A stretch of 62,628 nucleotides of DNA from Candidatus Dormiibacterota bacterium (GCA_036824145.1 DAITAT010000003.1:1-62628), one strand, 5' to 3'; positions 27,075 through 62,628 are shown, numbered from the stretch's first letter. Notes: generated from the letters alone by a model not told the origin. Numbers and translations: made by a program.

Positions 27075-27479
27075 ATGCTTGAGCGGTTGGCGCTGCTGGC
27101 GCTCCTTCTTTTGGGTCTTGGGTTGCTCTGGGCGGCGGTCGCCTTCGGCGCCCGATACCGACGCTGGCGTCGCGTCGACCGCATGTGCACGCCGGAGCTG
27201 AGCCAGGGCAAGACCACGGTGCTCTTCTTCACCGGCGAGCAATGCAGCGTCTGCCATCACCGCCAGAAGCCCGCCCTCGACGTGGTCCGCAGCAGCCACA
27301 ACGGCGAGCTGCGCGTCGTCGAGCTGGACGCCGCCCGGGAGACGTCGCTGGTGCGTCGCTTCGGCGTCCTCAGCCTGCCATCGACAGTCGTGCTCGCGGC
27401 GGATGGGACTGTCGGCGCTGTCAACTACGGTTTCGCCCCTTCCGACCAGATCAACGCCCAGGTCACCAGCGTCGCCTGA
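27075..27479 (+). CDS. Membrane-anchored thioredoxin-family protein (ThiX-like)
   Basis: N-terminal TM, FTGEQCSVC (CxxC), VLSLPST cis-Pro loop. Confidence 0.85.
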   Translation: MLERLALLALLLLGLGLLWAAVAFGARYRRWRRVDRMCTPELSQGKTTVLFFTGEQCSVCHHRQKPALDVVRSSHNGELRVVELDAARETSLVRRFGVLSLPSTVVLAADGTVGAVNYGFAPSDQINAQVTSVA

Positions 27480-28288
27480 AGGCCTCCTTCAGCGCCCTCA
27501 GTCTCTACGCCGCCTGCCCGCTGAAGTACCGCTACCTGCAGGTCGACGGTCAGGTCGAGCCCCCGGTGCAGCCTGACTGGCGCCGCGCCCCCGCCAGCGC
27601 CGAGCTGGCTCTTTCACCGGCCTTCGATCGCGAGCTCGGGATCGCCGTCCACCGCGCCCTGGCGCGCTGGCAGCGAGCCGTCGACGGCCGCGCCCCGGCA
27701 CGCGCGTCGAGCCTGCTGACCTCGGTGGCCGCCGAGGCCGCCCGGCAGGGGCTGGCGCATGTCGATGTCGAACGTGCGATGGAGCGCCTCGGTCCCCCGC
27801 TTTGCGACTACGCCGAGGGGCCGTGGCCGCGGCGTCACACGCTGTTCTTGGAGCAACCAGTGCGCCACGTTCTTGAGGACGGCGCTTTCAGTCTCGAGCT
27901 TTCGCTCCGGGTCGACCGGGTAGTTCGATACCGTCGCGGCGTTGCCATCCTCGACTTCAAAACCGTGCCGCCACATGCATTCGAGATGCGCGCGGACACC
28001 TGGCAGCTGCGAACGTACGCGTTGGCGGCGCCGGAGCTGGTGGGCGTCGACTCCAACAAGGTCGCGCTCTTCATCCTCGACCTGCGCGACGGTCGTGAGA
28101 TGCCCGTTGAAAGTGGCCCCCAGCAGCTGGCGGCGGCACGCGATGAGCTTCTGCAGTGCGGACGCGGCATCGCCGCCGGCGACTTCGGACTCGGCACCGA
28201 CCACGAGGATCGCCCGTGCTGGGACTGCGGCTTCCGTCTCGAGTGCCCCAGCTCGCTGGCGCCGGACCCGCCGATCGCGCGGCGATAG
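27476..28288 (+). CDS. Stand-alone PD-(D/E)XK nuclease with 4-Cys [4Fe-4S] staple; CTG start inferred
   Basis: SFSALSLYAACP, GIAVH, LEQ, RVDR..LDFKT, QLRTY, CWDCGFRLEC. Confidence 0.85.
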   Translation: MKASFSALSLYAACPLKYRYLQVDGQVEPPVQPDWRRAPASAELALSPAFDRELGIAVHRALARWQRAVDGRAPARASSLLTSVAAEAARQGLAHVDVERAMERLGPPLCDYAEGPWPRRHTLFLEQPVRHVLEDGAFSLELSLRVDRVVRYRRGVAILDFKTVPPHAFEMRADTWQLRTYALAAPELVGVDSNKVALFILDLRDGREMPVESGPQQLAAARDELLQCGRGIAAGDFGLGTDHEDRPCWDCGFRLECPSSLAPDPPIARR

Positions 28289-28301
28289 ACTTCGATCCGC
28301 G

Positions 28302-28574
28302 ATGCCGCAGTTCGAAGTCGTCGAGGACATGCGCCACGTCCCACCAGGGGAGGCGGGAACGCTGATCCCGTCCTGGAACACTGGCTACTCGCTCCGCACG
28401 GCGGCCCGGTCGGCCGAGACCACCGGCGAGGTCGTTCGCCCCGGGCAGCGGCTCCTGGTGCTCGAGGTCGCCGATGGTTTTCTCAAGGTTCGCCACGAGG
28501 CCGACGGCGGCGAGGGCTGGCTGCCGGAGCACATCGTGGCCCCGTGGCCGGATCTACACCGCCGAACTGGCTGA
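28302..28574 (+). CDS. Small SH3-like domain protein
   Basis: GQRLLVLEVADGFLKVR..GEGWLP pattern; no signal peptide. Confidence 0.65.
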   Translation: MPQFEVVEDMRHVPPGEAGTLIPSWNTGYSLRTAARSAETTGEVVRPGQRLLVLEVADGFLKVRHEADGGEGWLPEHIVAPWPDLHRRTG

Positions 28575-29381
28575 GGGTGCGCTGGCTCTGGCGGAGGTGT
28601 CGCCGACTCTCACGAAGAAATCGGTGATCAGCTTGTAGATCTCTTCGTGGTCGACGTCGACCGTCATCGCGTGACCGCTGCGCTCGAAATAACGCAGCGT
28701 CGCGGTGGGGCCGATGGCGTCGGCGATCAGCTTCGCGTTTGCCGGCGGCACAGTCCGGTCGCGATTGCCGTGCAGGATCAGCGCGGGGAGGTGGATGTCG
28801 TGGGCCTCGCGCAGGGCCTCGCGATACAGCAGGATGAGGTCGATGAGAGACTTCATCGCGCGCTTGTTGTAGCTACGCAGCTGTTTGACGGCGTCCTTGT
28901 CCCAGAGGTCGACGCTGTCGCGATCAGGGTAGTGCCATTTGAAGATATGCTGGCCGAGGAACAGCTTAAGCTCGGCCCAGCGGCCGAGATTCACCAGCGC
29001 CGCCATCGTCGCGATGGCGACGATGTCGGGGTTGCGCGCGGCAAGCAGCAGGCCCATGGTCCCGCCCATCGACTGCCCCGCCACGAACACCTGGCGGCAT
29101 TCGCGCTTGAGCTCATCGAGCTGCGCCTGGGCGCTGTCGATCCACTCGGTCCAGCTGGTGGCGAGGAGGTCCTCGGGGGTGGTCCCGCAACCGATCAGCA
29201 GGGCACCGTGCACCCGGAAGCCGTTGGCGGCGAGATGCTCGCCGAGACCGCGCACCTCCGGTGGGGTGCCGCAGAAGCCGTGAATCAGGAGGACGCCACG
29301 GTCGCCGGAGCCGAGCTTGAAAGGCTCTGGGTCGCCGGGTTGCGGCGGGTAGCTGAAGATCCCCTCACCTCGACGCGACAT
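28554..29381 (-). CDS. Carboxylesterase (Est30/YvaK-like alpha/beta hydrolase)
   Basis: LIHGFCGTP, GQSMGG, GNRDRTV, SGHAMTVD; TAAGAT-N6-ATG leaderless. Confidence 0.9.
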   Translation of the reverse strand: MSRRGEGIFSYPPQPGDPEPFKLGSGDRGVLLIHGFCGTPPEVRGLGEHLAANGFRVHGALLIGCGTTPEDLLATSWTEWIDSAQAQLDELKRECRQVFVAGQSMGGTMGLLLAARNPDIVAIATMAALVNLGRWAELKLFLGQHIFKWHYPDRDSVDLWDKDAVKQLRSYNKRAMKSLIDLILLYREALREAHDIHLPALILHGNRDRTVPPANAKLIADAIGPTATLRYFERSGHAMTVDVDHEEIYKLITDFFVRVGDTSARASAPSASSAV

Positions 29382-29408
29382 GCGCGGATCTTAACGTAGA
29401 GTCTGGCC
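29382..29408. promoter_or_regulatory. Back-to-back leaderless promoters in a 27-bp intergenic gap
   Basis: TAAGAT (minus, 29388-29393) and TAGAGT (plus, 29397-29402), each 6 nt from an ATG. Confidence 0.7.
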
Positions 29409-30428
29409 ATGATTCGGGAGGCGATCCAGCAGCTGGTCGAGTCGGTGGACCTCGATCGCAGGCAGGCGGCCGCCGCGATGGACGACATCATGAACGGCGA
29501 GGCTACCGACGCGCAGATTGCGGGTTTCCTGGTGGCGCTGCGGATGAAGGGCGAGACGGTCGAGGAAATGGTGGGCTTGGTGAACTCGATGCGCGACCAC
29601 GCCACCGCGATCGAAGCGCCGGAGGGCACGGTCGACACCTGCGGTACCGGCGGCGACGGCGCAGGCACCTTCAACATCTCGACCGCCGCGGCGCTGGTGG
29701 TGCGCGGCGCCGGGGCGACCGTTGCCAAGCATGGCAACCGAGCCGCCAGCAGCCAGTGCGGCAGCGCCGACGTCTTCGAGGCCCTCGGCGTGCCCGTGAC
29801 CCTGCCGGCGGCGGCGGTGGAGGAGTGCCTCCGCCAGGCGGGGATCGCCTTCCTCTTCGCCCCGACCTTCCATCCCGCCATGCGGCACGCCGCCAACCCC
29901 CGCAAGGAGCTCGGGGCGCGGACCGTCTTCAACTTCCTCGGGCCGCTGGCCAACCCCGCCCGGGTGAAACGCCAGGCGGTCGGCGCCGGCAGCCTGGCGG
30001 CGGCCGACAAGATGGTCCAGGTCCTGGCCGCGCTCGGTCACGAGCGTGCCCTCGTCTTCCACAGCGAGGATGGCTTGGATGAGCTCAGCACTGCGGCTCC
30101 GGCGCACGTCTTCGAGCTCCGCGACGGCCAGGTCCACGAGCACACGGTGGACTCGACGGCCTTGGGACTGCCCCGGTCGGTGGCGGCGGACCTCAGGGGC
30201 GGCGATGCCGCTCGCAACGCCGAGATCGTGACGGCGGTCCTCGCCGGGATTCCCGGGCCGCCGCGAGACATCGTCGTGCTCAACGCCGCCGCCGGGCTGG
30301 TAGCGGCGGGCAGCGCCGAAGACCTGGGCGCCGGGATGACGCTGGCGGCTGCCGCCATCGACGATGGCTCCGCCCGCGAAGCCCTCGAGAGCCTGAGGAC
30401 CGTCGCCTCGTCGCTGGTCGCCGCCTGA
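29409..30428 (+). CDS. trpD: Anthranilate phosphoribosyltransferase
   Basis: DTCGTGGDG, TFNIST, KHGNRAASS, GSADV, RTVFNFLGPLANP, DGLDE. Confidence 0.93.
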   Translation: MIREAIQQLVESVDLDRRQAAAAMDDIMNGEATDAQIAGFLVALRMKGETVEEMVGLVNSMRDHATAIEAPEGTVDTCGTGGDGAGTFNISTAAALVVRGAGATVAKHGNRAASSQCGSADVFEALGVPVTLPAAAVEECLRQAGIAFLFAPTFHPAMRHAANPRKELGARTVFNFLGPLANPARVKRQAVGAGSLAAADKMVQVLAALGHERALVFHSEDGLDELSTAAPAHVFELRDGQVHEHTVDSTALGLPRSVAADLRGGDAARNAEIVTAVLAGIPGPPRDIVVLNAAAGLVAAGSAEDLGAGMTLAAAAIDDGSAREALESLRTVASSLVAA

Positions 30429-30432
30429 CCTG

Positions 30433-31797
30433 GTGTCCGAGGACCTCGCCTACCGGTTTCCCAAGGGCTTCCTCTGGGGCACCGCCACCGCCGCCCACCA
30501 GGTCGAAGGGGGCAATTCCAACAACGACTGGTGGGAGTGGGAGCAGCAGCCCGGCAAGATCAAGAACGGCGCCCGCAGTGGCGCTGCCTGCGAGCATTAC
30601 ACGCGATACCCGCAGGACTTCGAGATGCTCGTCCAGATGGGCCACAACGCCCATCGCCTCTCGATCGAGTGGAGCCGTGTCTTCCCCGAGCGGGGGGTGG
30701 TCGACGCAGTGGCCGTGGCGCACTACCGCGACGTGCTCGAGACCCTCCATCGGCACGGGATGACGCCGCTGGTGACGCTGCACCACTTCACCAATCCGCT
30801 GTGGCTGTCGCGGGGAGGCGGTTGGGAGAACGAGGCGGCGATCGACGATTTCCGGCGGTTCGCCGAGCTCTGCGCCCAGGAGTACGGCGACCTGGTGCAG
30901 ACCTGGACCACTTTCAACGAGCCCAACGTCTACGCCTACCAGTCGTATGTTCTGGGCCTCTGGCCGCCAGGGCGGCGGGACTTCGGCGCGGCCGTGAAGG
31001 TGATGCGCAACATGATTCGCGCCCACGCCCTGGCCTACCGCGAGCTCAAGTCGGGGCCGCATGGCGCGTCGGCGATGGTCGGGATCGCGCAGCACATGCG
31101 GATATTCGAGGCCTGGCGGCACTGGCTGCCGCTTGACCGGGTCGCCGCCGCCCTGCCGGACGCCGGCTTCAACCACTGGATCCTGGGTGCGTGCACCGAC
31201 GGCCGTACCGGGCCTCCATTGGGGTTGCCGCAACGGATCTCCGAGGCCGCCGGCACCCTCGACTGGATCGGCCTCAACTACTACAGCCGCGACCTGGTGG
31301 CTTTCGATCCGAGGGCGGCACGCAACCTGTTTTCGCGTACCTTTGCCCGACCCGGCAGCCCGATCTCGGACTTCGGCATGGAGATCTACCCCCAGGGCAT
31401 CCACGACCTCTTGGTGTCGCTCACCGAGAAATACGGCAAGCCGGTCCACATCACCGAGAACGGGGTCGCCGACGCCACCGACGCGCTCCGGCCGCAGGCG
31501 CTGGTGTCCCACCTCGCCGAGACCGCCCGAGCGATTGGCGATGGCGTCGACCTGCGCGGCTACTTCCACTGGTCATCGATGGACAACTTCGAGTGGTCAG
31601 AGGGCTACGGCTTGCGGTTCGGCCTGGTCGAGGTCGATTTCGAAACGCAACAGAGAACGCCACGTCCCAGCGCCGCGCTCTACAGTCGCTTGATCCGTGA
31701 GAACGGCCTTCCCTGGAGCGATCTCCAAGAGCACTACCCGCCGGCGCTCGACTACTTCGAGGCTTCCAGCGAGGTCAGGCGCAGGAGCCCGGCGTAG
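30433..31797 (+). CDS. Glycoside hydrolase family 1 beta-glucosidase
   Basis: FLWGTATAAHQVEG, TFNEP acid/base, ITENG nucleophile, DNFEW, RFGL. Confidence 0.93.
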   Translation: MSEDLAYRFPKGFLWGTATAAHQVEGGNSNNDWWEWEQQPGKIKNGARSGAACEHYTRYPQDFEMLVQMGHNAHRLSIEWSRVFPERGVVDAVAVAHYRDVLETLHRHGMTPLVTLHHFTNPLWLSRGGGWENEAAIDDFRRFAELCAQEYGDLVQTWTTFNEPNVYAYQSYVLGLWPPGRRDFGAAVKVMRNMIRAHALAYRELKSGPHGASAMVGIAQHMRIFEAWRHWLPLDRVAAALPDAGFNHWILGACTDGRTGPPLGLPQRISEAAGTLDWIGLNYYSRDLVAFDPRAARNLFSRTFARPGSPISDFGMEIYPQGIHDLLVSLTEKYGKPVHITENGVADATDALRPQALVSHLAETARAIGDGVDLRGYFHWSSMDNFEWSEGYGLRFGLVEVDFETQQRTPRPSAALYSRLIRENGLPWSDLQEHYPPALDYFEASSEVRRRSPA

Positions 31798-32405
31798 CCG
31801 ACCAGCACGCCCTTCGCGGTCGCGGTCGCCGTGGCGAGATGACCGGTCTCGATGATCAGACACTCGACTCGTTGCGCCGTCTCCGCGCCGGCCGCAGGCA
31901 CGGCGGCGTCAGGATCGTCGGAGGCCACGGCGCGAAGCAGCTGGGCGACGATGATGGGGACGAGGTCGACGGTGCCGATCTGCACCGCGTCGACGTATCG
32001 CGTCGTTCCCGGCTCGAGCCCCGAGCGCGCCAGCATCACGGTGGGAAATGCTGCGGAAATGTAGTCGAGCTCGGCGTTGGGCCCCCATCCAAGCTCCACC
32101 TGGGTCGGCCCATCCGGCGCCGTGCGGTGCGCCAGCAGACCGTTGCCGGTGACGGTCAGCTCGAGCTCGGATTCGCCGGTGAAGCGCTCCCGGCTGACGA
32201 TGTGCAAGAGCCGCGTGACCAGGTCGCGGTCCAGGTCCCAATCGACGGTGGCGACGATGTCCTCCGGCCAGGCGGTCTGGATCCGGGTCTGGATCCGCCA
32301 GCCGTCGGCGCCTGCGGTCACCTCGACCACCTCGGTGCCGGCCTCGGAGCCATCCGGACGTACGAAGGCGTAGCCGGCGCGATAGGGGAGCAGCGTTGTG
32401 GGCAT
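31752..32405 (-). CDS. Hypothetical beta-rich protein (possibly putative glycolipid-binding-domain-like)
   Basis: Coding-like; CATAAT-N7-ATG leaderless start; family call weak. Confidence 0.65.
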   Translation of the reverse strand: MPTTLLPYRAGYAFVRPDGSEAGTEVVEVTAGADGWRIQTRIQTAWPEDIVATVDWDLDRDLVTRLLHIVSRERFTGESELELTVTGNGLLAHRTAPDGPTQVELGWGPNAELDYISAAFPTVMLARSGLEPGTTRYVDAVQIGTVDLVPIIVAQLLRAVASDDPDAAVPAAGAETAQRVECLIIETGHLATATATAKGVLVGYAGLLRLTSLEASK

Positions 32406-32469
32406 CGCCGGGATTATGGGACCGGCGGGCGGCTACGCTACCTGTCGACACCTAACCAGGAGGACAGAC

Positions 32470-32841
32470 ATGCCCGAGCAAGATTCCGCGCCAACTCCAG
32501 ACCCACCCGCAGCAGGTCAGATCCAGGTCCAGATCCCAGAGCCGCGCTTCGAGGTGATGTACTCCGACCAGGCCTTCGTCTCTCACACCTCGGTCGGGTT
32601 CACCCTGGACTTTGCCCAGGTGACTGCTCAGCTCGGCATCAGCCGGGTGGTGGCCCGGGTAGGGATGAGCGCCACCCACCTCAAGCTGCTGGTCGGGGTG
32701 CTCAGCGAGAACCTCAAGCACTTCGAGGAGCAATACGGCGCCGTCAACGTCACCGCAGCGATGGTCCAGCAGCACGAGCAGGCCACCCACCACATCGGCT
32801 TCCAGCCCGAGGTCGACAGGGAGGCCAAGCCGCCAAAGTGA
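32470..32841 (+). CDS. DUF3467 family protein
   Basis: YSDQAFVSH..FTLDFAQ..VVARVGMS..HLK..L.ENLKHFEEQYG; AGGAGG RBS. Confidence 0.8.
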   Translation: MPEQDSAPTPDPPAAGQIQVQIPEPRFEVMYSDQAFVSHTSVGFTLDFAQVTAQLGISRVVARVGMSATHLKLLVGVLSENLKHFEEQYGAVNVTAAMVQQHEQATHHIGFQPEVDREAKPPK

Positions 32842-33311
32842 GGCTTTCGCCGCGACTATGTCGCGTTTTCGAGATGGTCCCTGCCGGCGGCGCCGTCGCC
32901 GATATCGGCAGTGGCCACGGGGCGCTGGCCGCCTCCCTGGCCGCTCGCGGCCAGCGGGTGCTGGCCACCGAGCGCACACCCCAGCGCCTCGAGTCGTTGA
33001 AGCACGACCTGGCGCGGCGCGGCGTCCCGGTGGCAACCAGGCGGGGCGAAGGCCTGGCGGCGCTGCGCCACGGCGAAGTCGAGACCGCGGTGATCGCCGG
33101 GCTTGGGGGGCGCAACCTGGTGGCGATGCTGGAAACCAGCTCATGGTTGCCGCGCTGGTTGGTGCTGCAGCCGATGCAGGACGCCGACATGGTCGAGGGC
33201 TGGATCCAGGCCCGGGGGTGGCCCTCGGTCGCCTGCGAGGCAACCGAGCGCGGCCGCCGGTACCGGGCATGGCGGGTCGAGGTGCAGTCGCGGCCGGTCG
33301 ACGGCGGGTGA
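32838..33311 (+). CDS. trmK: tRNA (adenine-22-N1)-methyltransferase, short form
   Basis: RLSPRL, VADIGSGHG, GEGLAAL, IAGLGG, LVLQPM; GTGA overlaps at both ends. Confidence 0.75.
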   Translation: MRLSPRLCRVFEMVPAGGAVADIGSGHGALAASLAARGQRVLATERTPQRLESLKHDLARRGVPVATRRGEGLAALRHGEVETAVIAGLGGRNLVAMLETSSWLPRWLVLQPMQDADMVEGWIQARGWPSVACEATERGRRYRAWRVEVQSRPVDGG

Positions 33312-33751
33312 GCCACCTCGTCCTCCACACCGACGGTGGTTCACGCGGCAACCCCGGACCAGCCGCCATCGGGGTCGTGATCGAAGCCGAGAAGGATGGT
33401 CAGACGGAACTGGTAGGCGAGATCGGCGAGACCATTGGGGTGGCCAGCAACAACGTGGCCGAGTACCGGGCCATCATCCGCGGGCTCGATGAGGCGGAGC
33501 GACTGGGCGCGTCCAGCGTCACCTGCCTGCTCGATAGCCTCCTCGTGGTCGAGCAGCTCAACGGCAGCTACCGCGTCAGGTCGGCGGACATGAAGCCGCT
33601 GCACGCACGAGTCAATGAGTGCCGTCAGCACTTCGCCCTGGTCACCTTCCAGCATGTCCGACGAGAGCGGAACCAGGAAGCCGACCGCCTCGTCAATGAG
33701 GCTCTCGACGGCAAGCGGCGGCCTGGCTTCACTCTTGTCGCCGCCGAATAG
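33308..33751 (+). CDS. rnhA: Ribonuclease HI (Gram-positive/archaeal-like)
   Basis: HTDGGSRGNPGPA, NNVAEY, DSLLVVEQLNG, HVRRERNQEADRLVN. Confidence 0.9.
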   Translation: MSHLVLHTDGGSRGNPGPAAIGVVIEAEKDGQTELVGEIGETIGVASNNVAEYRAIIRGLDEAERLGASSVTCLLDSLLVVEQLNGSYRVRSADMKPLHARVNECRQHFALVTFQHVRRERNQEADRLVNEALDGKRRPGFTLVAAE

Positions 33752-33791
33752 AGGGCGTTTTCGAGAACTCGGCAGCGGTAGAATGCCGTCT

Positions 33792-34166
33792 GCGTGGCGA
33801 GTCGGCGAGGTGACCGCGGCGGGAGCAATCCCGTCGAGGAAAGTCCGAGCTCCTCAGAGCAGAGTGCCGGGTAATCCCCGGCGGGCGCGAGCCCAGGGAA
33901 AGTGCCACAGAAAATACACAGCCGCAGATCCAACTGCGGTAAAGGTGAAATGGTGGAGGTAAGAGCCCACCGGCGGCCGGGAGACCGGTCGGCCAGGTAA
34001 ACCCCACTTGGAGCAAGACCTGAAAGAGGGCGTTGAGGCTGCTCGTTCAGTCCTCGGGTAGGTCGCTGGAGGTGCCGGGTAACCGGCGCCGTAGATAGAT
34101 GGTCACCGCCTCGACGGCCGCAAGGCTCCGGGGCACAGAACTCGGCTTATTGCCGGGTCGCCACGC
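33792..34166 (+). ncRNA. rnpB: RNase P RNA (type A)
   Basis: GAGGAAAGTCC, AGTGCCACAGAAAA, GGTAAACCCC, GAGCAAG, AGATAGATGGTC, ACAGAACTCGGCTTA; P1 GCGTGGCGA/TCGCCACGC; TAGAAT -10 at 33779. Confidence 0.97.
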
Positions 34167-34329
34167 TAAATACAGTGCCGTTGGGGAGCGAGACCTGGGT
34201 CAGTCCAGGGAGAGAAGACGCCAGGAAGCGCCTGACTTCGATGTGCGCGGAGAAGCGGTTGGCCGGTCGATGCGGCCCAGACATGCCTCGCGTCCGGCAT
34301 CTCGGCCAAATAATCCCCACTCTGTTCCA

Positions 34330-34419: not shown

Positions 34420-34426
34420 ATTTGTA

Positions 34427-34455
34427 TTGACACCTGCATCCGCCGGTGCTACGGT
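34427..34455 (+). promoter_or_regulatory. dcw (mraZ) promoter
   Basis: TTGACA-17 bp-TACGGT with extended TG. Confidence 0.85.
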
Positions 34456-38338: not shown

Positions 38339-39712
38339 ATGAGCTTCCGACTCTTCGAGCTGGCCGAGGCGACCGGCGGCCGGCTGATCGACGCTGACGC
38401 CGACCTCGCCCTCGACCGGCTGGTGATCGACTCCCGCCAGGCGACCCCGGGCTCCCTCTTCGTGGCCCTGGTCGGTGAGACCACCGACGGCCACCGCTTC
38501 CTGGCCGATGCTGTCGAGGCGGGCACCTCGGCGGTGCTCTGTCAGTTCGCGCCGCCGGAGCTCTCGGTGCCGCGGGTCGAGGTCGACGACACCCGCGAGG
38601 CCCTCGTCAGTTTCACCCGCTACCATCTGCGGCGGCAGGGCTGCACCGTCGTCGGGGTCACCGGCAGCGTGGGCAAGACCAGCACCAAGGAGATGGTGGC
38701 GGCGGTGCTTGCCCGGCGATTCGAGGTCCTCAAGGCCGAAGGCAACCTGAACACGTACACAGGTCTGCCGATGACGGTGGCCGGCCTCGAGCCACGCCAC
38801 CAGGTCTTGGTGGCCGAGTACGCGATGTCGGCGATCGGTGAGATCGCCTTACTTGCCCGGATGGCGCCGCCGGATGTCGCCGTCGTGCTCAACGTCGGGC
38901 TTTCCCATGTCGGTCTGCTCGGTGACATCGAGGCCGTCAGCCGCGCCAAGCGGGAGCTTGTCGAGGCGCTCGGGCCTGAAGGCACCGCCATCCTCAACGC
39001 CGACGACCCCAGGGTCATGGCGATGGCGCTGGCCAGTGCGGGCCGGGTGGTGACCTTCGGCTACGGGAATACCCAAAAGCATGTCGATGTGCACGCCGAA
39101 AACATCACCCTGCGAGGCCTTGAGGGCAGTGTCTTCACGCTGGCGCTACCCACCGACGAGCGAGTGCAGGTCGAGCTGAGCATCCCTGGGGTCCACGCCG
39201 TCAGCAACGCGTTGGCGGCGGCCGCGGCGGGCCACGTCCTCGGCGTCGCCACCGCGGACATCGCCGCCGCGCTCAGCGGCGTCGGCGCGCTTGGCGGTCG
39301 CGGTGTTCTTCGCCCCGGGCGGCTGGGATCGACGATCATCGACGACGCGTACAACGCCAGCCCTAGCTCGGTGGCGGCAGCGCTTCAGGTGCTCCTTGGC
39401 GAGACCGGCCGGCCCCGGATCGCCGTCCTTGGCGAGATGCTTGAGCTCGGGGAGAAGGCGGCCGAAGCCCACCAAAAGATCGGCCGCCAGGCTGCGCGCA
39501 GCGACCTGCTGGTGGCCCTCGGTGAGCACGCCGCCGATATCGTCGAGGGCGCCACCGAGGCCGGCCTTCGCGTCGATCGCGCCATCCTGGTGACCAGCCC
39601 CGAAGAGGCTGTCGCCGCGGTCGAGCCTCACCTCAAGGGCGCCGTGGTGCTGGTCAAGGCGTCCAGGGGGGTCGCCCTGGAGCAGGTCGTCGATCGCCTG
39701 GCGGAACCGTGA
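38339..39712 (+). CDS. murF: UDP-MurNAc-tripeptide--D-Ala-D-Ala ligase
   Basis: IDSR, DGHRF, GVTGSVGKTSTKE, DDAYNASP, LGEMLELG, VKASRG. Confidence 0.93.
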   Translation: MSFRLFELAEATGGRLIDADADLALDRLVIDSRQATPGSLFVALVGETTDGHRFLADAVEAGTSAVLCQFAPPELSVPRVEVDDTREALVSFTRYHLRRQGCTVVGVTGSVGKTSTKEMVAAVLARRFEVLKAEGNLNTYTGLPMTVAGLEPRHQVLVAEYAMSAIGEIALLARMAPPDVAVVLNVGLSHVGLLGDIEAVSRAKRELVEALGPEGTAILNADDPRVMAMALASAGRVVTFGYGNTQKHVDVHAENITLRGLEGSVFTLALPTDERVQVELSIPGVHAVSNALAAAAAGHVLGVATADIAAALSGVGALGGRGVLRPGRLGSTIIDDAYNASPSSVAAALQVLLGETGRPRIAVLGEMLELGEKAAEAHQKIGRQAARSDLLVALGEHAADIVEGATEAGLRVDRAILVTSPEEAVAAVEPHLKGAVVLVKASRGVALEQVVDRLAEP

Positions 39713-55474: not shown

Positions 55475-55583
55475 TGACCGACGCCGACCTGCATCGACGC
55501 CCGGATAGCCTCAAAAAAGCCCGGTGTTATACTCGGCGCCTATCTCGAACTTGGGTGCTGCGCACCCACAGAGAGGTTCTTTG

Positions 55584-55955
55584 GTGACTGACGCGACGGT
55601 GGATTTGGCGAGTGTGCGCAGGGAACTGCAGGCTCAGTTGGCGCGCCTGGACGGCGAGCGGGCGGAGCTTGAGAAAGCCCGTGAGAACGCCCGCAATGGC
55701 AAGGACGAAACCGCCGGCTACGGCAACGGCGTAGGCGAAGCAGCCACCGAGACGTTCGAGGCCGAACGGGACCTCGCCCTGATCGACAACCTGGAACAGA
55801 TGCGCGGGCACGTGATCGAGGCGCTCGCGCGGCTCGATGACGGCAGCTACGGCAGCTGCGTCACGTGCGGCGAGCCGATTCCGCGCGAGCGGCTCGAGGC
55901 CCTGCCACATGCCAGCCAGTGCGTCGCCTGCAAATCCAAGGAGCAGCACCACTGA
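55584..55955 (+). CDS. DksA/TraR-family C4 zinc-finger protein
   Basis: Coiled coil, EAATET tip, GSYGSCVTCGEPI..RLEALP..CVAC; TATACT promoter at 55528. Confidence 0.88.
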   Translation: MTDATVDLASVRRELQAQLARLDGERAELEKARENARNGKDETAGYGNGVGEAATETFEAERDLALIDNLEQMRGHVIEALARLDDGSYGSCVTCGEPIPRERLEALPHASQCVACKSKEQHH

Positions 55956-56007
55956 TGACCGGGCCCCAAAAGGGATCGATGGCGGGGCCGACAGCGGGGC
56001 CGAGAGC

Positions 56008-56487
56008 ATAGCCTCTCCGGCGCTTTCCCGCCAGACGCTCCTCTACCTCGTGGCGCTGGTGGCCTTTCTCCTCGACCGCGTCACCAAGTCGCTGGTCCAG
56101 CACAACTTGGTGCTGAACACGCCGGACCGTCTCCTGGGCGGGGTGGTCTACCTCACCCGCACGCAAAACACCGGCGCAGCCTTCAGCGTCGGCGTGACCT
56201 ACGGGACTTTCTTCCTGCTGTTGGCGGCGGTGGCGAGCGCCAGCATCATCTTCTACAACCGCCGGATACCGACTCGTGAGACCTGGCTCCGCGTCGGGCT
56301 GGGGATGATCCTCGGCGGCGCCATTGGCAATGCCCTCGACCGCGCCGTTGCCGGCTCGGTGACCGACTTCATCGACCTGCGCTGGTGGCCGGTCTTCAAC
56401 CTCGCCGATTCGTTCATCGTCGTGGGGGCTGTGGTCTCCGCCGTCCGCCTCAGCGGGCGGGACCATCAGTCCCGCATCAGGCCGTGA
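56008..56487 (+). CDS. lspA: Lipoprotein signal peptidase; start unresolved
   Basis: LDRVTK, QNTGAAFS, GAIGNALDR, VTDFID, VFNLADSFI. Confidence 0.92.
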   Translation: MASPALSRQTLLYLVALVAFLLDRVTKSLVQHNLVLNTPDRLLGGVVYLTRTQNTGAAFSVGVTYGTFFLLLAAVASASIIFYNRRIPTRETWLRVGLGMILGGAIGNALDRAVAGSVTDFIDLRWWPVFNLADSFIVVGAVVSAVRLSGRDHQSRIRP

Positions 56488-57389
56488 CTGTCGAGACCGC
56501 TCTGGTGGTCCAGGCGCCGGTCGATCGGCTTGACGTTTTCCTGACCGCTGCGGGCGTGGTGCCGTCGCGGGCGGTGGCGACCAGGTTGGTGCGGGAGGGC
56601 TCGGTGCTGGTCAACGGCAGGCGCGCGCGGCCCAGCCGAGCGGTGGCCGCCGGCGACAGAGTCAGCATCTCCATCCCCGACTCCACCCCGGCGGCGCCCC
56701 AGGCCGAGGACATCCCCCTGCGCGTGGTCTTCGAAGACGATGACCTGATGGTCATCGACAAGCCAGCGGGGATGGTGGTCCACCCCGGCGCCGGGCAGGC
56801 CACGGGGACCATGGTCAACGCACTGCTGGCGATCCATTCCGACTGGCCCACCGCCGGCGGCCCGCACCGCCCCGGCATCGTGCACCGGCTGGACAAGGGC
56901 ACCAGCGGCCTGATCCTGGTGGCCCGGCACGACATCGCTCACCGCCGGCTCAGCGCCGACCTCGCCGAGCGCAAGGTCAGCCGCGTCTACCTTGCCATCG
57001 CCCGTGGCAAGCTGACCGGGGATGGCGTCGTCGACGGGGCCATCGGCCGCGACCCGCGGGACCGCAAGCGGATGGCGGTGGTCGATGGTGGGCGCGCCGC
57101 GCTGACGCGGTTCACCGTCCTCGAGCCCCTCGAGGCCGCGACGTATCTCGAGGTCAGGCTGGGCACCGGGCGCACCCACCAGATCCGCGTCCACCTCGCC
57201 GCCATCGGCCACCCGCTGGTCGGCGACGCCACCTACGGTCGCGGTGGGGGACCAAAGCTGATCGACCGGCCCGCGCTCCACGCCCATCGCCTCGGATTCC
57301 GTCATCCCGTGACTGGCGATGCGCTGGAGTTCGAGACCGCACCTCCACCCGACTTCCAGAAGGCGCTGCGCCTGCTGAGGCTGCCCTGA
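56484..57389 (+). CDS. rluD: RluA/RluD-family pseudouridine synthase
   Basis: S4-like N-terminus, DKPAGMVVHP, GIVHRLDKGTSG, GRTHQIRVH, ALHA. Confidence 0.94.
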   Translation: MTVETALVVQAPVDRLDVFLTAAGVVPSRAVATRLVREGSVLVNGRRARPSRAVAAGDRVSISIPDSTPAAPQAEDIPLRVVFEDDDLMVIDKPAGMVVHPGAGQATGTMVNALLAIHSDWPTAGGPHRPGIVHRLDKGTSGLILVARHDIAHRRLSADLAERKVSRVYLAIARGKLTGDGVVDGAIGRDPRDRKRMAVVDGGRAALTRFTVLEPLEAATYLEVRLGTGRTHQIRVHLAAIGHPLVGDATYGRGGGPKLIDRPALHAHRLGFRHPVTGDALEFETAPPPDFQKALRLLRLP

Positions 57390-57961
57390 CGCGCCGGGGG
57401 CTGCTGGTGGTTGTCTCCGGTCCCAGCGGGGTGGGCAAGGACAGCGTCCTCGAAGGCGTCTTCCAGCTCGACCCCTCGCTCTCCTACAGCGTCTCCTACA
57501 CCACCCGGAAGACCCGTGCCGGGGAGGTAGACGGAGTCGACTACAGCTTTGTCAGCGATGAGGAATTCGATCGCCTGGTTGCCGAGGGCGAGTTGCTGGA
57601 GTGGGCCAACGTACACGGCCATCGCTCGGGTACGGGGCGGCGACGGATCGAGGAGGTGCTGGAGGCGGGTCGAGACATCGTCCTCAACCTCGACGTGCAG
57701 GGCGGCATGTCGGTCCGCAAGCTGGTGCCCGACGCGCTCCTCATCTTCCTGGCCCCGCCGAGCATCGAGGAACTCAGACGCCGCCTGGCGGCGAGGGCCA
57801 CCGAGGACCCCGAGGAGATCGCGCGGCGCCAGGCCGATGCTGAGGTAGAGATGGGATACTCTGACCAGTACGACGCGGTGGTGGTGAACGACGACCTCGA
57901 CCGCGCCGCCCGTGAGGTGTTGGACCTGATCCAGGAACGTCGCCGGAGGGACTCCGCTTGA
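57386..57961 (+). CDS. gmk: Guanylate kinase; CTG start inferred
   Basis: RGLLVVVSGPSGVGK, TTRKTRAGEVDGVDY, DVQG, LAPPS, VVNDDL. Confidence 0.95.
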   Translation: MTRRGLLVVVSGPSGVGKDSVLEGVFQLDPSLSYSVSYTTRKTRAGEVDGVDYSFVSDEEFDRLVAEGELLEWANVHGHRSGTGRRRIEEVLEAGRDIVLNLDVQGGMSVRKLVPDALLIFLAPPSIEELRRRLAARATEDPEEIARRQADAEVEMGYSDQYDAVVVNDDLDRAAREVLDLIQERRRRDSA

Positions 57962-59217
57962 ACCCCTATCTGGCCCGACGCGCATTTGCCGGCCGCCGCC
58001 TTCTGGTCGGCGTCTGCGGCGGCGTGGCGGCTTACAAGTGCGCCGAGACGGTGAGCCTGCTGGTCCAGGCGGGCGCCGTGGTGCGCGTGGCGATGACGCC
58101 CGAGGCCACCCGGTTTGTCTCGCCGCTGACTTTCGAAGCTCTGTCCGGCCAGCCTGTTGCCAGCGACCTCTTCGGCACCCAGACCAGCCCCGGCCGCGAG
58201 GGCGGCGAGGTCCACATCGCGCTCTCCGACTGGCCCGAGGCCTTCCTGGTGATGCCCGCCACCGCCAATTTCATCGCCAAGCTGGCGCACGGCCTGGCCG
58301 ACGAGGTGGTCAGCACCACGGTGCTGGCGACGACGGCCCCGCTGGTGCTGGCGCCGGCCATGCACAACCGCATGTGGGAACAGCCGGCCACGATGGAGAA
58401 CGTCGAGGCCTTGCGGCGGCGCGGCGTCGTCCTGGCCGGCCCGGTGGAGGGTCACCTGGCCAGCGGCGACATCGGCATGGGTCGCCTTGCCGACCAGGAC
58501 GAGATCCTGCGCGCGCTCCGGGACGCCCTGCCTGGCGAGCGGGACATGGCCGACCTGCACATCGTCGTCACCTCCGGGGGCACCCGCGAGCCGCTGGACC
58601 CGGTGCGCTACATCGGCAATCGCTCGAGCGGGATGATGGGCCATTCGATCGCCGCCGCCGCGGAGGCGCGGGGGGCCCGTGTGACCCTGGTCACGGCTTC
58701 GGCGATGACCGTGCCGGCGGGGGTGGAGGCGTCGCGCGTCGACACCGCGGCGGCCATGAGCGACGCAGTCAAGACCGCGGTCGAGACCGCCGACATGCTG
58801 GTGATGGCGGCCGCGGTGGCGGACTTCCGCCCCCGCCAGGTGGCGCCGCAGAAGCTCCGCAAAGCCGACATCACCACGGACCTCGCCCTGGAGCGCACCG
58901 AGGACATCCTGGCTTCGCTGGCGGCGCTGGGCGTGGGTCGCCGACTGGTCCGGGTCGGGTTCGCGGCCGAGACCCATGAGGTGCTGGCCAACGCCCAGGA
59001 GAAGCTGGTCGCCAAGGGGCTGGACCTGGTCGTCGCCAATGATGTCTCCGATCCCAACATCGGCATCGGCGCGACCGACAACGAAGTCACCATCATCAGC
59101 CGCGACGGCAGTCGTCGGGAGGTCAGCCGAGCCCCCAAGGAGGAGGTCGCCGACGAGATCCTGAGCGCAGCGCTGGAGGCTCTGCGAGCCAAGGGGCGGA
59201 GCGAGAAAGTCTCCTGA
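57958..59217 (+). CDS. coaBC: Bifunctional phosphopantothenoylcysteine decarboxylase/ligase
   Basis: GGVAAYK, MPATAN, PAMHNRMW, GGTREPLDPVRYIGNRSSG, AAAVADF, GFAAET, VANDV. Confidence 0.96.
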   Translation: MNPYLARRAFAGRRLLVGVCGGVAAYKCAETVSLLVQAGAVVRVAMTPEATRFVSPLTFEALSGQPVASDLFGTQTSPGREGGEVHIALSDWPEAFLVMPATANFIAKLAHGLADEVVSTTVLATTAPLVLAPAMHNRMWEQPATMENVEALRRRGVVLAGPVEGHLASGDIGMGRLADQDEILRALRDALPGERDMADLHIVVTSGGTREPLDPVRYIGNRSSGMMGHSIAAAAEARGARVTLVTASAMTVPAGVEASRVDTAAAMSDAVKTAVETADMLVMAAAVADFRPRQVAPQKLRKADITTDLALERTEDILASLAALGVGRRLVRVGFAAETHEVLANAQEKLVAKGLDLVVANDVSDPNIGIGATDNEVTIISRDGSRREVSRAPKEEVADEILSAALEALRAKGRSEKVS

Positions 59218-59381
59218 TGTCGCCTGCCGGCGGCGCCGAGCCGAGCGACCCGGAGCCTGACGACGACCTGCCCCCGCGGCGCCCCGGGGAGTCCATCACC
59301 GACTACCGCGCGGTCGCCTTTCTCATGGTCCTGTTCCTGCTGGCGCTGGGCCTGATGTACCTGATCGGGCGCGGCCGCTGA
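59217..59381 (+). CDS. 54-aa single-TM protein absent from the ORF track
   Basis: TGATG overlap with coaBC, CTGA overlap with priA; MSPAGGAEPSDPEPDDDLPPRRPGESITDYRAVAFLMVLFLLALGLMYLIGRGR. Confidence 0.75.
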   Translation: MSPAGGAEPSDPEPDDDLPPRRPGESITDYRAVAFLMVLFLLALGLMYLIGRGR

Positions 59382-61384
59382 GCCTCTACGCCCAGGTCGT
59401 AGTCGACCGTCGAACCGGGCCGTCGCTGGAGTCCTTCACGTACGAGGTCCCAGACGAGCTTGCCGGGGCCATCGCCGAGGGCGCCCGCGTGGTGGTGCCG
59501 TTTGGCAAGCGCACCGTGACCGGGTACGTGCTGGGCCTGAGCCCCAGGTCTGACTACCCATCACCGCGCCCGATCGAGTCGCTGGCGGACGAGCCGCCGC
59601 CACTCCAGCCCCATCAGGTCGAGCTGGCGCGCTGGATCGCGGCACACTACGCGGCGCCGTTGGCTGAGACGGTGCGAGCCATGATCCCGCCCGGGATCCG
59701 GTCCCTCAAGTCGGGTAGCAAGCGCAGGCGCGGCCCCCAGGTTGAGAGCCGTGACCGCACCCTGGCGGGGGCCGAGCAGGACGTCGCCAGCGCAAAGCTG
59801 ACCCCCGAGCAGGCCACGGCGGTCGCCGCCGTCGAGGATGCGCTCCAGCGCCGCCGTGGGCGTCTCCTCCTGCACGGCGTCACCGGCAGCGGCAAGACCG
59901 AGGTCTACCTCGAAGCGATCGGCAAATGCCTGGAGCTGGGCCGCGGCGTGATCGTGCTGGTCCCCGAGGTGTCGCTGACGCCCCAGGTGACGGGGCGGTT
60001 CGCGGAGCGCTTCGCCGGCCAGATCGCCGTCCTCCACAGCCGCCTCACCCCCAGCGAGAAGGCGCTGGAGTGGAACCGCCTGCGTCGTGGCGAGGCGTTG
60101 GTTGCGATCGGGCCGCGGGCCGCTATCTTCGCCCCCATCCCCGACCTCGGCCTGGTTATCGTCGACGAGGAGCACTCGATCACCTATAAGCAGCTCCGGG
60201 TGCCGCGATACCACGCCGTCGACGTGGCTCACCGGCTGGGCGACCTGGCGGGGGCGGTGGTGCTGTTGGGCAGCGCCACCCCGAGCGTGGTCAGCTACGA
60301 GGCCCACGGCCGCGCCGCCGGCGAGTTCGACGGCGCTCGCATCCTCGAACTCCCTCACCGCTACGGAGGCGAGCCGCTGCCCAGCATGGAGATCATCGAC
60401 ATGCGCCGCGACGACGGCAGGAGCTTCAACCGACCGCTGGGGGCGAGGATGGTCGAGCTCTGCCGCGAGGAGCTGGCGGCGGGCGGCCAGGTCATCCTCT
60501 ACCTCAACCGGAGGGGGCTGGCGTGGTACGCGCGCTGTCGCAAATGCGGCGAGGCGGTCGGCTGCCCCAACTGCAGCGTCTCGCTGGTCTACCACGGCGT
60601 CACCAGGAGCCTGGCCTGCCACTACTGCGGCCACAGCCAGGCGCTGCCCCAGCAGTGCCCCAGCTGCGATGCCCGCGACCTGCGCACTGTCGGCTTCGGC
60701 ACCGAACGGATCCAGGCCGAGGCCGAACGCCTATTCCCGGAAGCGCGGACGTTGCGCCTGGATCGCGACACCGCGCGCACCCGCGACTCCTACTACGGCA
60801 TCTGGGAGGACTTCTCGCGCGGCAGCGCCGACATCCTCGTGGGCACCTCGCTGGTGGCCAAGGGCTGGGACCTGCCCCGCGTCGGCCTGGTTGGCGTTAT
60901 CGATGCCGACCAGGCCCTCCAATACCCCGACTTCAGAGCGGCCGAGGATACTTTCGCGTCGCTGGTGCAGGTCGGTGGACGGGCCCGCCGAAGCGGCTCG
61001 CGGGTGGCGGTGCAGACGATGAATCCTCACCACTACGCTGTCCGCCTGGCGCTGGGGCACGACTACCACGGGTTCTTCGCCGAGGAGTTGGCGGTTCGCG
61101 AGGCCCTTAATTTTCCACCCTTCTGCCGGCTCGTCGACGTGACGGCGTCGGGCGCCGACGACGATAAGGCTCGCACGGCGGCGACCGCCTACGCCGAGGC
61201 ATTGCGGCGCACACTGGCCGGTGGCAGTCCCGAGGTCGTGGTCATGGGGCCCAGCCCGGCCTTCATCCATCGAGTTCGGGGCGAATACCGGTGGTCGATC
61301 ACGATCAAGGCCGGCGACCTCGACCCGGTCATGCCCCTGCTGCCCGACGGTCGCGGCTTCAGTGTCGACGTCGACCCCCTCTAA
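59378..61384 (+). CDS. priA: Primosomal protein N'; CTG start inferred
   Basis: YAQVVV..FTYEVP..RVVVPFG N-domain, GVTGSGKT, DEEH, four CxxC motifs, GFGTER, QVGGRARR. Confidence 0.95.
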   Translation: MSLYAQVVVDRRTGPSLESFTYEVPDELAGAIAEGARVVVPFGKRTVTGYVLGLSPRSDYPSPRPIESLADEPPPLQPHQVELARWIAAHYAAPLAETVRAMIPPGIRSLKSGSKRRRGPQVESRDRTLAGAEQDVASAKLTPEQATAVAAVEDALQRRRGRLLLHGVTGSGKTEVYLEAIGKCLELGRGVIVLVPEVSLTPQVTGRFAERFAGQIAVLHSRLTPSEKALEWNRLRRGEALVAIGPRAAIFAPIPDLGLVIVDEEHSITYKQLRVPRYHAVDVAHRLGDLAGAVVLLGSATPSVVSYEAHGRAAGEFDGARILELPHRYGGEPLPSMEIIDMRRDDGRSFNRPLGARMVELCREELAAGGQVILYLNRRGLAWYARCRKCGEAVGCPNCSVSLVYHGVTRSLACHYCGHSQALPQQCPSCDARDLRTVGFGTERIQAEAERLFPEARTLRLDRDTARTRDSYYGIWEDFSRGSADILVGTSLVAKGWDLPRVGLVGVIDADQALQYPDFRAAEDTFASLVQVGGRARRSGSRVAVQTMNPHHYAVRLALGHDYHGFFAEELAVREALNFPPFCRLVDVTASGADDDKARTAATAYAEALRRTLAGGSPEVVVMGPSPAFIHRVRGEYRWSITIKAGDLDPVMPLLPDGRGFSVDVDPL

Positions 61385-61467
61385 CGCGCATCGCTCAAGT
61401 CACCCCAACCCGCCCGGCGGCCGCGAGGTGCCAATCGGCCCAGCAGAGTCACAAAGCCCGCCCCAAC

Positions 61468-61496
61468 TTGACCTCGGGCCAGGTGTTGGTTAGGGT
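61468..61496 (+). promoter_or_regulatory. Sigma70-type promoter of CHAP hydrolase gene
   Basis: TTGACC-17 bp-TAGGGT. Confidence 0.75.
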
Positions 61497-61502
61497 GTGC
61501 CA

Positions 61503-61592
61503 AGTATCAAAGCGCCCCGCTGGGCCTCTACCTCAGCACCCGGAGCCGGGAACTCACGGGATGGGCGCCCGACCTTAACTTCATTGGAGGAG
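61503..61592 (+). ncRNA. Candidate structured 5' leader (three-way junction)
   Basis: P1 61512-17/61563-68, P2 61519-24/61532-37, P3 61539-45/61553-60, then GGAGGAG. Confidence 0.35.
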
Positions 61593-61597
61593 TAATC

Positions 61598-62628
61598 CTG
61601 GGGATCCGGACGCGTGTGCTGGCAGTCTGCATTGGCACGGTTCTGGCGACCCCACTTCTCCAATCGGTTCCCGCATCAGCTGACCAGATCAGCACCCTCC
61701 TCGCCCAGCGTCAGCAGCTGCAGCAACAGGTGTCGGCACTTGGTGGAGACAAGACCCAGGCGCTCCAGGACCTCCTCGTCGCCGAGAATGCGCTGCGCAA
61801 CACCCAGGCGCAGGTAAGCGAGAACGCCGCCATCCTCGTCGATCTGCAGCGGCAGCAGGACACCATTCGCGCCCACATCGTGGCCACCCGCGCCGAGATC
61901 GACACCCAGCGCCATCTGCTCGGTGACCTGACCCGGGGCCAGTACAAACAGCACACCAACAACGACGGGCTATCGGTGATCTTCTCGTCGAGCAACTTCA
62001 GCCAGGCGATCAACGCTGTGATGGCCACCCAGAGCGTGAACCGCAGGATCGCCGACACCGCTCGAAAACTCAAGGCCGATGAGCAAGCCCTGACCTCGAT
62101 GTCCAATGACCTCGCCGCCAAGCAGAAGCAGGCCGCCCAGGTCCAGGCTCAGTTGGAGCAGGAGAACGGCCGGCTGCTGGTCCAGGTGGCTGACCACGAC
62201 AACCGCGTGGCCTCGATCGACGGCACCTCGCAGGCGCTGCTGGCGAAGATCGCAGCGATCAACAAGCAGATCGCGGCATTGCAGGCGCCGCCGGCACCCA
62301 GATTTGGGAGCGGCGCCGGCTCTGGTGGCGGTGGCGGGTCCTGCAGCAATCACTTCGACTACGGCTACTGCACCTGGTACGTCGCCAACCGGCGCTGCAT
62401 CCCCTGGTTTGGCAATGCCTGGGAGTGGTACGGGAACGCCCAGGCCTACGGCTTCCCGGTTGGCAACCAGGCCAGGGTCGGCGCTGTCGCGGTCTGGGAC
62501 CAGCGGATGAGCGGCTGGGGCCACGTGGGCTACGTCGAGAGCGTCCAGCCCGACGGCTTCACGGTCTCCGAGATGAACTACAACGCCTGGGGCCAGGTCA
62601 ACACGCGCTTCGTTCCCTTCGCTAACCC
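61598..62628 (+). CDS. PcsB/CwlO-like secreted coiled-coil + CHAP peptidoglycan hydrolase, 3'-truncated by window edge; absent from ORF track
   Basis: Signal peptide ending ASA, long Gln-rich coiled coil, Gly linker, YGYCTWYV, GNAWEW, GHVGYVE, SEMNY; GGAGGAG five nt before CTG. Confidence 0.92.
   Translation, partial: MGIRTRVLAVCIGTVLATPLLQSVPASADQISTLLAQRQQLQQQVSALGGDKTQALQDLLVAENALRNTQAQVSENAAILVDLQRQQDTIRAHIVATRAEIDTQRHLLGDLTRGQYKQHTNNDGLSVIFSSSNFSQAINAVMATQSVNRRIADTARKLKADEQALTSMSNDLAAKQKQAAQVQAQLEQENGRLLVQVADHDNRVASIDGTSQALLAKIAAINKQIAALQAPPAPRFGSGAGSGGGGGSCSNHFDYGYCTWYVANRRCIPWFGNAWEWYGNAQAYGFPVGNQARVGAVAVWDQRMSGWGHVGYVESVQPDGFTVSEMNYNAWGQVNTRFVPFAN

Follow-up and report, generated by a model that had tools for sequence, protein, structure and literature searches.

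Where does translation begin when the conserved N-terminus of a bacterial protein lies upstream of the first ATG, GTG or TTG of its gene? This question is raised by a 62,628-nucleotide (nt) stretch of Candidatus Dormiibacterota bacterium (GCA_036824145.1 DAITAT010000003.1:1-62628; the whole stretch is called the window below), in which CTG is the candidate start codon of four genes, namely priA, gmk, a gene for a PD-(D/E)XK nuclease and a gene for a secreted hydrolase with a CHAP domain. An earlier note on the DNA of this uncultured soil bacterium had proposed that CTG starts are systematic here. We find that CUG probably serves as a start codon in two settings in this Candidatus Dormibacterota genome: at NTGA overlaps, in which the start codon shares TG with the preceding TGA stop, and at a site led by a Shine-Dalgarno (SD) sequence.

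The window has a base composition of 65-70% G+C with a very high third-position G+C, and its nearest relatives are metagenome-assembled genomes (MAGs) labelled Candidatus Dormibacteria, Dormibacteraeota or Dormiibacterota. Start regions were compared in 12 Dormibacterota lineages (PriA identities of 68-88%, plus one at 51%; loci of relatives carry L numbers), and the syntenic comparison took in 16 gene families in up to 12 lineages.

The four CTGs were found where the earlier note had placed them (27476 in the nuclease gene, 57386 in gmk, 59378 in priA and 61598 in the CHAP gene), and the first three share TG with the preceding TGA, as it had claimed. The note had named base errors in the assembly as grounds for refutation. 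The CTGs are true bases and no assembly errors, because identical bases occur in ten independent assemblies per site: 10/10 assemblies from different samples at the gmk, priA and CHAP sites, and 10/10 at the nuclease site, whose samples overlap only partially with those of the other ten. One MAG contig (DAIMKQ010000001.1) encodes an identical copy of the thioredoxin-like protein upstream of the nuclease, and 2 of the 3,405 surrounding bases differ from the window. All four open reading frames (ORFs) are intact along their full length and encode complete Pfam domains, which open at residues 3-7 counted from each CTG. A CTGA at a gene end is unremarkable in itself, with C before 21 of the 39 TGA stops and C making up 51.5% of third positions. 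What goes beyond chance is the lack of an alternative start combined with peptide conservation up to the CTG, rather than the CTGA tetranucleotide. The other members of the NTGA set are likewise present, as noted before: ATGA at 15717, 22219, 40785, 52280 and 7358 (minus strand), GTGA at 39709, 42987, 44318 and 56484, and TTGA at 57958 and 8323 (minus strand).

In priA, the CTG (59378-59380) overlaps the stop codon (59379-59381) of an ORF of 54 amino acids (aa) and opens the sequence LSLYAQVVV..FTYEVP. The frame is closed upstream by a stop codon at 59258-59260, and no in-frame ATG, GTG, TTG, CTG or ATH (H being A, C or T) occurs between that stop and the CTG; the earlier statement that priA has no canonical start back to the previous in-frame stop was thereby verified. 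From this stop through to residue 17 of PriA, the CTG is the sole start candidate of these kinds, and the first canonical start, GTG 59489, lies 37 codons downstream. When the window was compared with L001, an 88% relative, priA codons 2-23 showed eight synonymous and no non-synonymous differences (P = 2e-5), and in the other two frames every difference was non-synonymous. Because codons 2-23 differ only synonymously, translation in the CTG frame must start at or before codon 2.

CTGA stands at the priA start in eight of the 12 lineages (the window, L001, L003, L087, L088, L091, L104 and L105). The remaining starts are GTGA in L090 and L092, TTGA in L089 and a free ATG in L002, and these canonical starts lie at the homologous position, at the same codon or 1-5 codons away. 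The CTG occupies three registers relative to the conserved Y/F-A-x-V motif; the gene before it is a ParA-like one except in the window and L001, where it is the small ORF. Given three registers and two different upstream genes, the CTGA state has arisen or been kept repeatedly. By comparison, 51/51 control loci from other phyla, mostly high-GC Gaiellales, have a canonical start a few codons upstream of the conserved priA motif; for non-canonical priA starts in Dormibacterota versus these phylogenetically clustered controls, Fisher P is 1.3e-7. Among 37 called PriA proteins at ≥ 68% identity, 27 begin at internal codons, and in nine the first residue is M, V or L, placed at the homologous codon. 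No SD sequence was found before priA in any of the 12 lineages, whatever the start codon (SD:anti-SD duplex energies of -3.5 to +0.7 kcal/mol, compared with -4.0 as the random mean). At the eleven overlapping priA junctions N is C in eight, G in two and T in one, which closely matches neutral third-position usage (C 0.52, G 0.37). The comparisons of codons and relatives argue strongly that priA translation would start at CTG 59378.

Two further observations concern this locus. The small ORF is called at the same position in every relative, with a length of 45-57 aa, and a gene for a ParA/MinD-like ATPase (~315-320 aa) lies between it and priA in L003, L087, L088, L090, L091, L104 and L105. The window species and L001 are without this gene, and priA therefore overlaps the small ORF there. 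In addition, a PriA of 661 aa listed as the window's own (P0001) begins MVDRRTGP, which would place its start at codon 8 (59399). This codon is GTA in the window and in all ten assemblies, unlike the P0001 start; either P0001 represents a strain variant with GTG, or the listing masks a near-identical protein.

The second setting is found in the CHAP gene, in which the SD sequence GGAGGAG (61586-61592) and the spacer TAATC precede CTG 61598, confirming the distance of five nt reported earlier. This CTG is invariant in 11/11 lineages at protein identities of 50-73%, with varying flanking codons, and an SD sequence lies 5-8 nt before it in each of the eleven (duplex energies of -5.7 to -14.3 kcal/mol). 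In L003, an in-frame TGA occurs two codons upstream of the CTG, and in L002, L088 and L091 there is no downstream canonical start that retains the signal peptide. The starts of ~65 called homologues range from -38 to +47 codons around the CTG, none of them at the CTG itself, and those with a called start upstream of the CTG all carry Leu at its position. Here too, the alignments make a strong case that translation would start at the CTG.

About 100 nt upstream of the CHAP gene, a pair of hexamers that would act as its promoter (conserved as TTGAC-N17-TAGGGT) is kept, spacing included, in nine lineages (the window, L001, L002, L003 and L087-L091). The conserved leader that follows contains the recurring boxes ACCC...GGGAA...GGG and CCACTT and could be an undescribed regulatory leader. 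The upstream region gave no Rfam match at gathering or permissive thresholds, and RNAalifold gave no consensus fold for the MAFFT alignment of the nine leaders. A distant CHAP homologue at another locus (L103, 9985-10003) has a TTG start behind the SD sequence GAGGTGA, so a weak Leu-type start may be a trait of the family; the JGI-called members of this distant group (P0197-P0219) are listed with Leu first in 9/9 cases.

The case of gmk is of intermediate strength. Its CTG (57386-57388) overlaps the rluD stop codon (57387-57389) and opens LTRRGLLVVVSGPSG. Two more in-frame CTGs (57401 and 57404) precede the first canonical start, GTG 57407, which lies seven codons downstream, and a peptide expected of the CTG-started protein is GLLVVVSGPSGVGK. 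Residue 1 of the CTG-started Gmk is matched in an alignment by M1 of Listeria Gmk (PDB 3TAU), and the G-L/I-L residues ahead of the GTG position and of the P-loop strand are encoded in all gmk relatives. Only the window species has CTGA between rluD and gmk; the junction is TGATG in L001, GTGA in L003 and L105, and ATGA in L088. These alignments support, with moderate confidence, a predicted start at CTG 57386.

The next junction, between gmk and coaBC, also changes among lineages: it is TTGA in the window, L001 and L087, ATGA in L088, L091 and L105, GTGA in L003 and L104, and CTGA in L090. In this last lineage, a canonical start next occurs 41 codons after the CTG, beyond the GGVAAYK motif, and judged from this position coaBC of L090 is an additional CTGA-start case, absent from the earlier note. 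The L104 gene (1599-1883) has a GTGA start, but its first ~85 codons are out of frame with the rest, which is a frameshift or a contig indel error.

The nuclease gene is the weakest of the four cases, and its CTG start is doubtful. The CTG (27476-27478) overlaps the TGA stop (27477-27479) of the thioredoxin-like gene and opens LKASFSALSLYAACP, the N-terminal peptide after the start being KASFSALSLYAACPLK. The coding signal sets in exactly at 27476, and the next canonical start, GTG 27566, lies 30 codons downstream. Two in-frame codons that had gone unmentioned, GTG 27185 and ATG 27242, lie 97 and 78 codons upstream of the CTG; both fall within the thioredoxin gene, which uses another frame, and no coding signal in the nuclease frame was present at either. 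A metagenome scan for nuclease relatives yielded three loci, one of which (L075, from the sister lineage) covers the start.

For these genes, the earlier claim that standard annotation truncates the proteins agrees with the public record. The inspected public assemblies call a PriA of 631 aa (not 668), a Gmk of 184 aa, a nuclease of 240 aa and a CHAP protein from GTG 61616. The gene callers behind the public collections would mis-start these genes, by truncation or by extension past the start, because none allows CTG. Of the in-frame CTGA overlaps in 599 kb of high-GC control loci, nearly all are followed by a canonical start after 1-9 codons; the census was repeated on an enlarged Dormibacterota set. 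A coding-potential scan found no nearby canonical start for 13% of Dormibacterota genes versus 10% of control genes, and it cannot separate the two sets since the onset of the coding signal is too noisy in these GC-rich genomes. A fifth candidate in the window, at 18939 (minus strand), was rejected: an intrinsic terminator follows the upstream stop, and the gene starts further on. The terminator-like hairpin (18890-18945, minus strand; GAAGGGCCCC..GGGGGCCCTTC and then a T run) lies directly after TGA 18946-18948 and explains this false candidate. A literature search returned nothing on start codons in Dormibacterota.

The 3' part of the window is a tightly packed operon with the order ileS, a dksA-like gene, lspA, rluD, gmk, coaBC, the 54-aa ORF and priA, and the CHAP gene comes after it. 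From 56484 to 59381 the junctions form an unbroken chain of overlaps: GTGA between lspA and rluD (56484), CTGA between rluD and gmk (57386), TTGA between gmk and coaBC (57958), TGATG between coaBC and the small ORF (59217) and CTGA between the small ORF and priA (59378). The coordinates of the features are collected in the table.

Table. Features at and around the candidate CTG starts (window coordinates)
Feature	Position	Strand	Remarks
Thioredoxin-like gene	27075..27479	+	Pfam Thioredoxin_2 and Thioredoxin; 134-aa protein called in ten assemblies
PD-(D/E)XK nuclease ORF, from CTG 27476 (start doubtful)	27476..28288	+	PDDEXK_1 positions 2-247 match residues 3-258
rluD-type pseudouridine synthase	56484..57389	+	Pfam S4 and PseudoU_synth_2; 301 aa in ten assemblies; GTGA overlap with the lspA stop
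Guanylate kinase (gmk), from predicted start CTG 57386	57386..57961	+	Guanylate_kin profile position 4 = residue 7
coaBC	57958..59217	+	Pfam Flavoprotein and DFP; TTGA overlap with the gmk stop
54-aa ORF, one hydrophobic helix	59217..59381	+	ATG overlaps the coaBC stop (TGATG); TGA overlaps the priA CTG
priA, primosomal helicase, from predicted start CTG 59378	59378..61384	+	Six PriA/helicase Pfam domains; 3' DNA-binding domain (3'BD) from residue 7
Putative CHAP promoter	61468..61496	+	TTGACC (61468-61473), 17 nt, TAGGGT (61491-61496)
CHAP leader, ~95 nt, conserved	61503..61597	+	Ends with the SD sequence GGAGGAG; nine-lineage alignment
Secreted coiled-coil and CHAP-domain peptidoglycan hydrolase, from predicted start CTG 61598	61598..62628	+	Pfam CHAP; ORF leaves the window

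Several RNA genes were recorded alongside. The window carries a bacterial class A RNase P RNA (33798-34164, plus strand, 267 bits) and a tRNA-Leu with anticodon TAG (24144-24225, plus strand). A tmRNA gene lies a few kb downstream of smpB in L077 (17262-17631) and also in L003, L087, L090, L091 and L092; ARAGORN places it on the minus strand in L077 and on the plus strand at the remaining loci. The tmRNA tag in the window species is AKNTQSLAFAA.

How could CUG be used at these sites? As judged from the codon comparison of priA, the peptide is under purifying selection right up to the CTG. In a first mode, a ribosome that terminates on the upstream ORF would re-initiate at the overlapping codon without an SD sequence, and initiator tRNA would read the CUG. 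The first base of the overlapping start codon would then be effectively free in this clade, and under mutation pressure towards C at third positions, ATGA, GTGA and TTGA junctions would become CTGA. This mode would cover priA (most lineages), gmk (window species), coaBC (L090) and perhaps the nuclease. The absence of an SD sequence in all 12 lineages suggests indirectly that priA translation may depend on the upstream ORF. The idea in the earlier note that NTG initiation is tolerated during translational coupling fits these junctions, since those of priA, coaBC and gmk switch among ATGA, GTGA, TTGA and CTGA across the phylum.

In a second mode, an ordinary SD-led initiation site would carry CTG, as proposed for the CHAP (PcsB/CwlO-like) gene with its own promoter and leader. 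The most likely purpose of such a codon would be to keep translation of a potentially lytic enzyme low, or responsive to the status of initiation fidelity, which may be why the CTG has been retained. The other idea in the earlier note, that CTG tunes expression, fits this gene with its CTG, invariant throughout the class, and its strong SD sequence.

A broader form of the first mode is that post-termination ribosomes at -4 overlaps ignore the first base, that any NTGA works and that CTGA makes up a sizeable share of overlaps genome-wide. We put this forward tentatively and consider it somewhat less probable than its opposite. Such indifference might rest on a lineage-specific change in initiation factor 3 (IF3), initiator tRNA or 16S rRNA; the infC and initiator tRNA genes are absent from the 1.19 Mb of compared sequence.

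Several points weigh against CTG initiation in these genes, or limit its reach. The assignments of the N-termini are all comparative, and the loci of the relatives were sampled via priA, which biases the frequencies. In model bacteria CUG initiates translation poorly, and rejection of this codon by IF3 has been described (PMC4705826). The word systematic in the earlier note proved too strong: among the 16 families, only priA, CHAP, one coaBC and one gmk are without a canonical start, and in 12 of these neighbouring families every candidate start at the conserved N-terminus or near it is canonical, so that no genome-wide relaxation is visible in every gene. Within priA, a GTG lies 6-13 codons downstream of the CTG in L087, L088, L091, L104 and L105, and another lies 10 codons upstream in L003; a shorter or longer PriA is possible in these six lineages. 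In the CHAP genes of L001 and L090, translation could alternatively start at a TTG that follows the CTG by two codons. For gmk, GTG 57407 is a possible fallback only seven codons downstream, and control genomes, too, contain in-frame CTGA overlaps that a canonical start follows after 6-9 codons. In L075 the nuclease gene has retained the CTGA, directly followed by 24 extra nt with an in-frame GTG, and the window gene looks like the product of a 24-nt deletion that removed this GTG. The L075 copy itself, with a TGG-to-TGA nonsense change and a 1-nt deletion ~10 nt further on (3995-4140), looks like a pseudogene or a poor contig; as it is frameshifted, an ungapped ratio of non-synonymous to synonymous change (dN/dS) against it is not usable. 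By sequence, no canonical start fits the conserved N-terminus of the nuclease family, but the status of the gene is doubtful.

Some of these points would also be expected if the public annotations were right and translation began at the next canonical codon (GTG 59489, 57407, 27566 or 61616), with the stretch upstream untranslated. Gene callers do put the starts at those GTGs in the inspected public assemblies, and the proximity of the gmk GTG, the control overlaps and the weakness of CUG (PMC4705826) all favour this view. A start at GTG 59489, however, would remove 37 residues from the 3'BD of PriA, among them FTYEVP, which can be aligned with solved PriA structures; the codons for these residues are under strict purifying selection in the CTG frame, and in relatives PriA opens with M, V or L at the homologous start position, in several cases at the exact codon. 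From GTG 61616 the CHAP protein would lose the charged n-region of its signal peptide, the SD sequence would be 23 nt away, and L002, L088 and L091 have no fallback codon equivalent to this GTG. Started at GTG 57407, Gmk would read MVVSGPSG and be without the conserved GLL strand residues. We therefore regard the annotated starts as quite unlikely. It is also unlikely, if slightly less so, that the CTGs are lesions in genes that have lost their start and are becoming pseudogenes or are negligibly expressed, an explanation that would concern chiefly the nuclease and possibly gmk. The GTG kept by L075 and the damage to that copy speak for it, as does gmk, with CTGA in the window species only, ATG in L001 and GTG in L003 and L105. 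Against it, all four ORFs are full-length with complete domains, the priA CTGA persists to 68% protein identity and the CHAP CTG to ~50%, and strong purifying selection acts on priA. Cells can generally not do without the enzymes Gmk and CoaBC. The first 29 nuclease codons show three synonymous and two non-synonymous differences from L075, which are too few to judge the window copy and give weak evidence, yet no sign of decay.

Two other explanations accept the junctions as functional. Post-termination 70S ribosomes might take an elongator Leu-tRNA or resume at the next codon, without pairing of initiator tRNA and CUG, in which case the first residue would be Leu or absent. In a reconstituted calicivirus system, post-termination ribosomes restart at near-cognate codons and even, with elongator tRNAs, at non-cognate ones (PMC5972666), and the SD-less priA starts with their neutral-looking N would suit such a process. 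No bacterial precedent was found in the literature searched, however, the SD-led CHAP CTG cannot be accounted for in this way, and only NTG codons occur at the eleven overlapping priA junctions, though the TGA stop itself fixes TG; this explanation, too, has a low probability, similar to that of the annotated starts. A programmed -1 frameshift or read-through that fuses the upstream and downstream proteins would agree with the frame relation at all CTGA junctions, where the downstream frame is shifted by -1 from the upstream one. The three junctions (GGC CGC TGA, CTG CCC TGA and GTC GCC TGA) nevertheless show no slippery heptamer of the form X XXY YYZ, the products encoded upstream have no relation to one another (thioredoxin, RluD, a small membrane ORF and, in relatives, a ParA-like protein), and free-standing or canonical starts occupy this position in relatives. 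Frameshift fusion was rejected on account of the absent slippery sites and the differing partners, and we consider it extremely improbable; recoding of TGA was rejected as well, because the downstream frame differs from the upstream frame.

CUG initiation in two settings has partial counterparts in known systems. In Deinococcus-Thermus, conserved non-canonical starts have been described for rpsL (CTG), dnaA (ATC), a folK-like gene (CTG) and infC (ATA) (Baudet et al. 2010, PMC2830850), and the CTG and ATC starts of Deinococcus were proven by N-terminal proteomics (PMC2830850). There, as here, a few important genes keep a start other than ATG, GTG or TTG across relatives, and gene callers give heterogeneous N-termini. 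In contrast to that case, with its experimental evidence and no CTGA overlaps described, the Dormibacterota case is comparative and concerns priA and the CHAP hydrolase. Translational coupling by termination-reinitiation is known at -4 (NTGA) and -1 (TGATG) overlaps (PMC6728339, PMC10666635, PMC12548453). The co-directional NTGA geometry and the chain of overlapping genes agree with it, and the SD-less priA is compatible with reports of SD-independent coupling. The overlaps described are ATGA and GTGA, with TTGA implied, unlike the CTG at 27476, 57386 and 59378; the text of this coupling literature (PMC6728339, PMC10666635, PMC12548453) does not mention CTG, CUG or CTGA.

The nearest parallel for the SD-led site is infC, which starts with AUU; IF3 disfavours codons that differ from AUG, GUG and UUG, and this weak start makes infC expression sensitive to initiation fidelity (PMC4705826). 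The CHAP gene likewise combines a normal ribosome-binding site with a start that is weak, conserved and non-canonical, but its codon is CUG instead of AUU, its product is a secreted hydrolase, and no autoregulatory logic is evident. Finally, termination-reinitiation in caliciviruses, which depends on the termination upstream ribosome-binding site (TURBS), is for the most part unaffected by which codon serves for the restart (PMC5972666). The restart at an overlapping stop and start and the use of near-cognate codons resemble what is proposed here for the NTGA junctions. The calicivirus system differs in being eukaryotic (40S/80S) and in that an mRNA element, by pairing with 18S rRNA, provides the tether; no element of this kind was noticed here, where no search aimed at it was made.

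In the annotation of these genomes, miscalled starts would mean that PriA loses part of its 3' DNA-binding domain and that CoaBC of L090 loses its flavin mononucleotide-binding motif. The N-termini of the CHAP hydrolase are scattered across 85 codons in public calls, and phylum-level comparisons of Dormibacterota proteins would inherit such start errors. If first-base indifference holds, the NTGA junctions would be a bacterial counterpart of the start-codon-insensitive re-initiation in caliciviruses. The switching junctions form a natural experiment, which suggests that re-initiation can do without discrimination of the first base and bears on the open question of 30S versus 70S re-initiation. 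The invariant CTG behind a strong SD sequence on a cell-wall hydrolase gene would be a new example of a conserved weak start codon, comparable to those of infC and of rpsL in Deinococcus.

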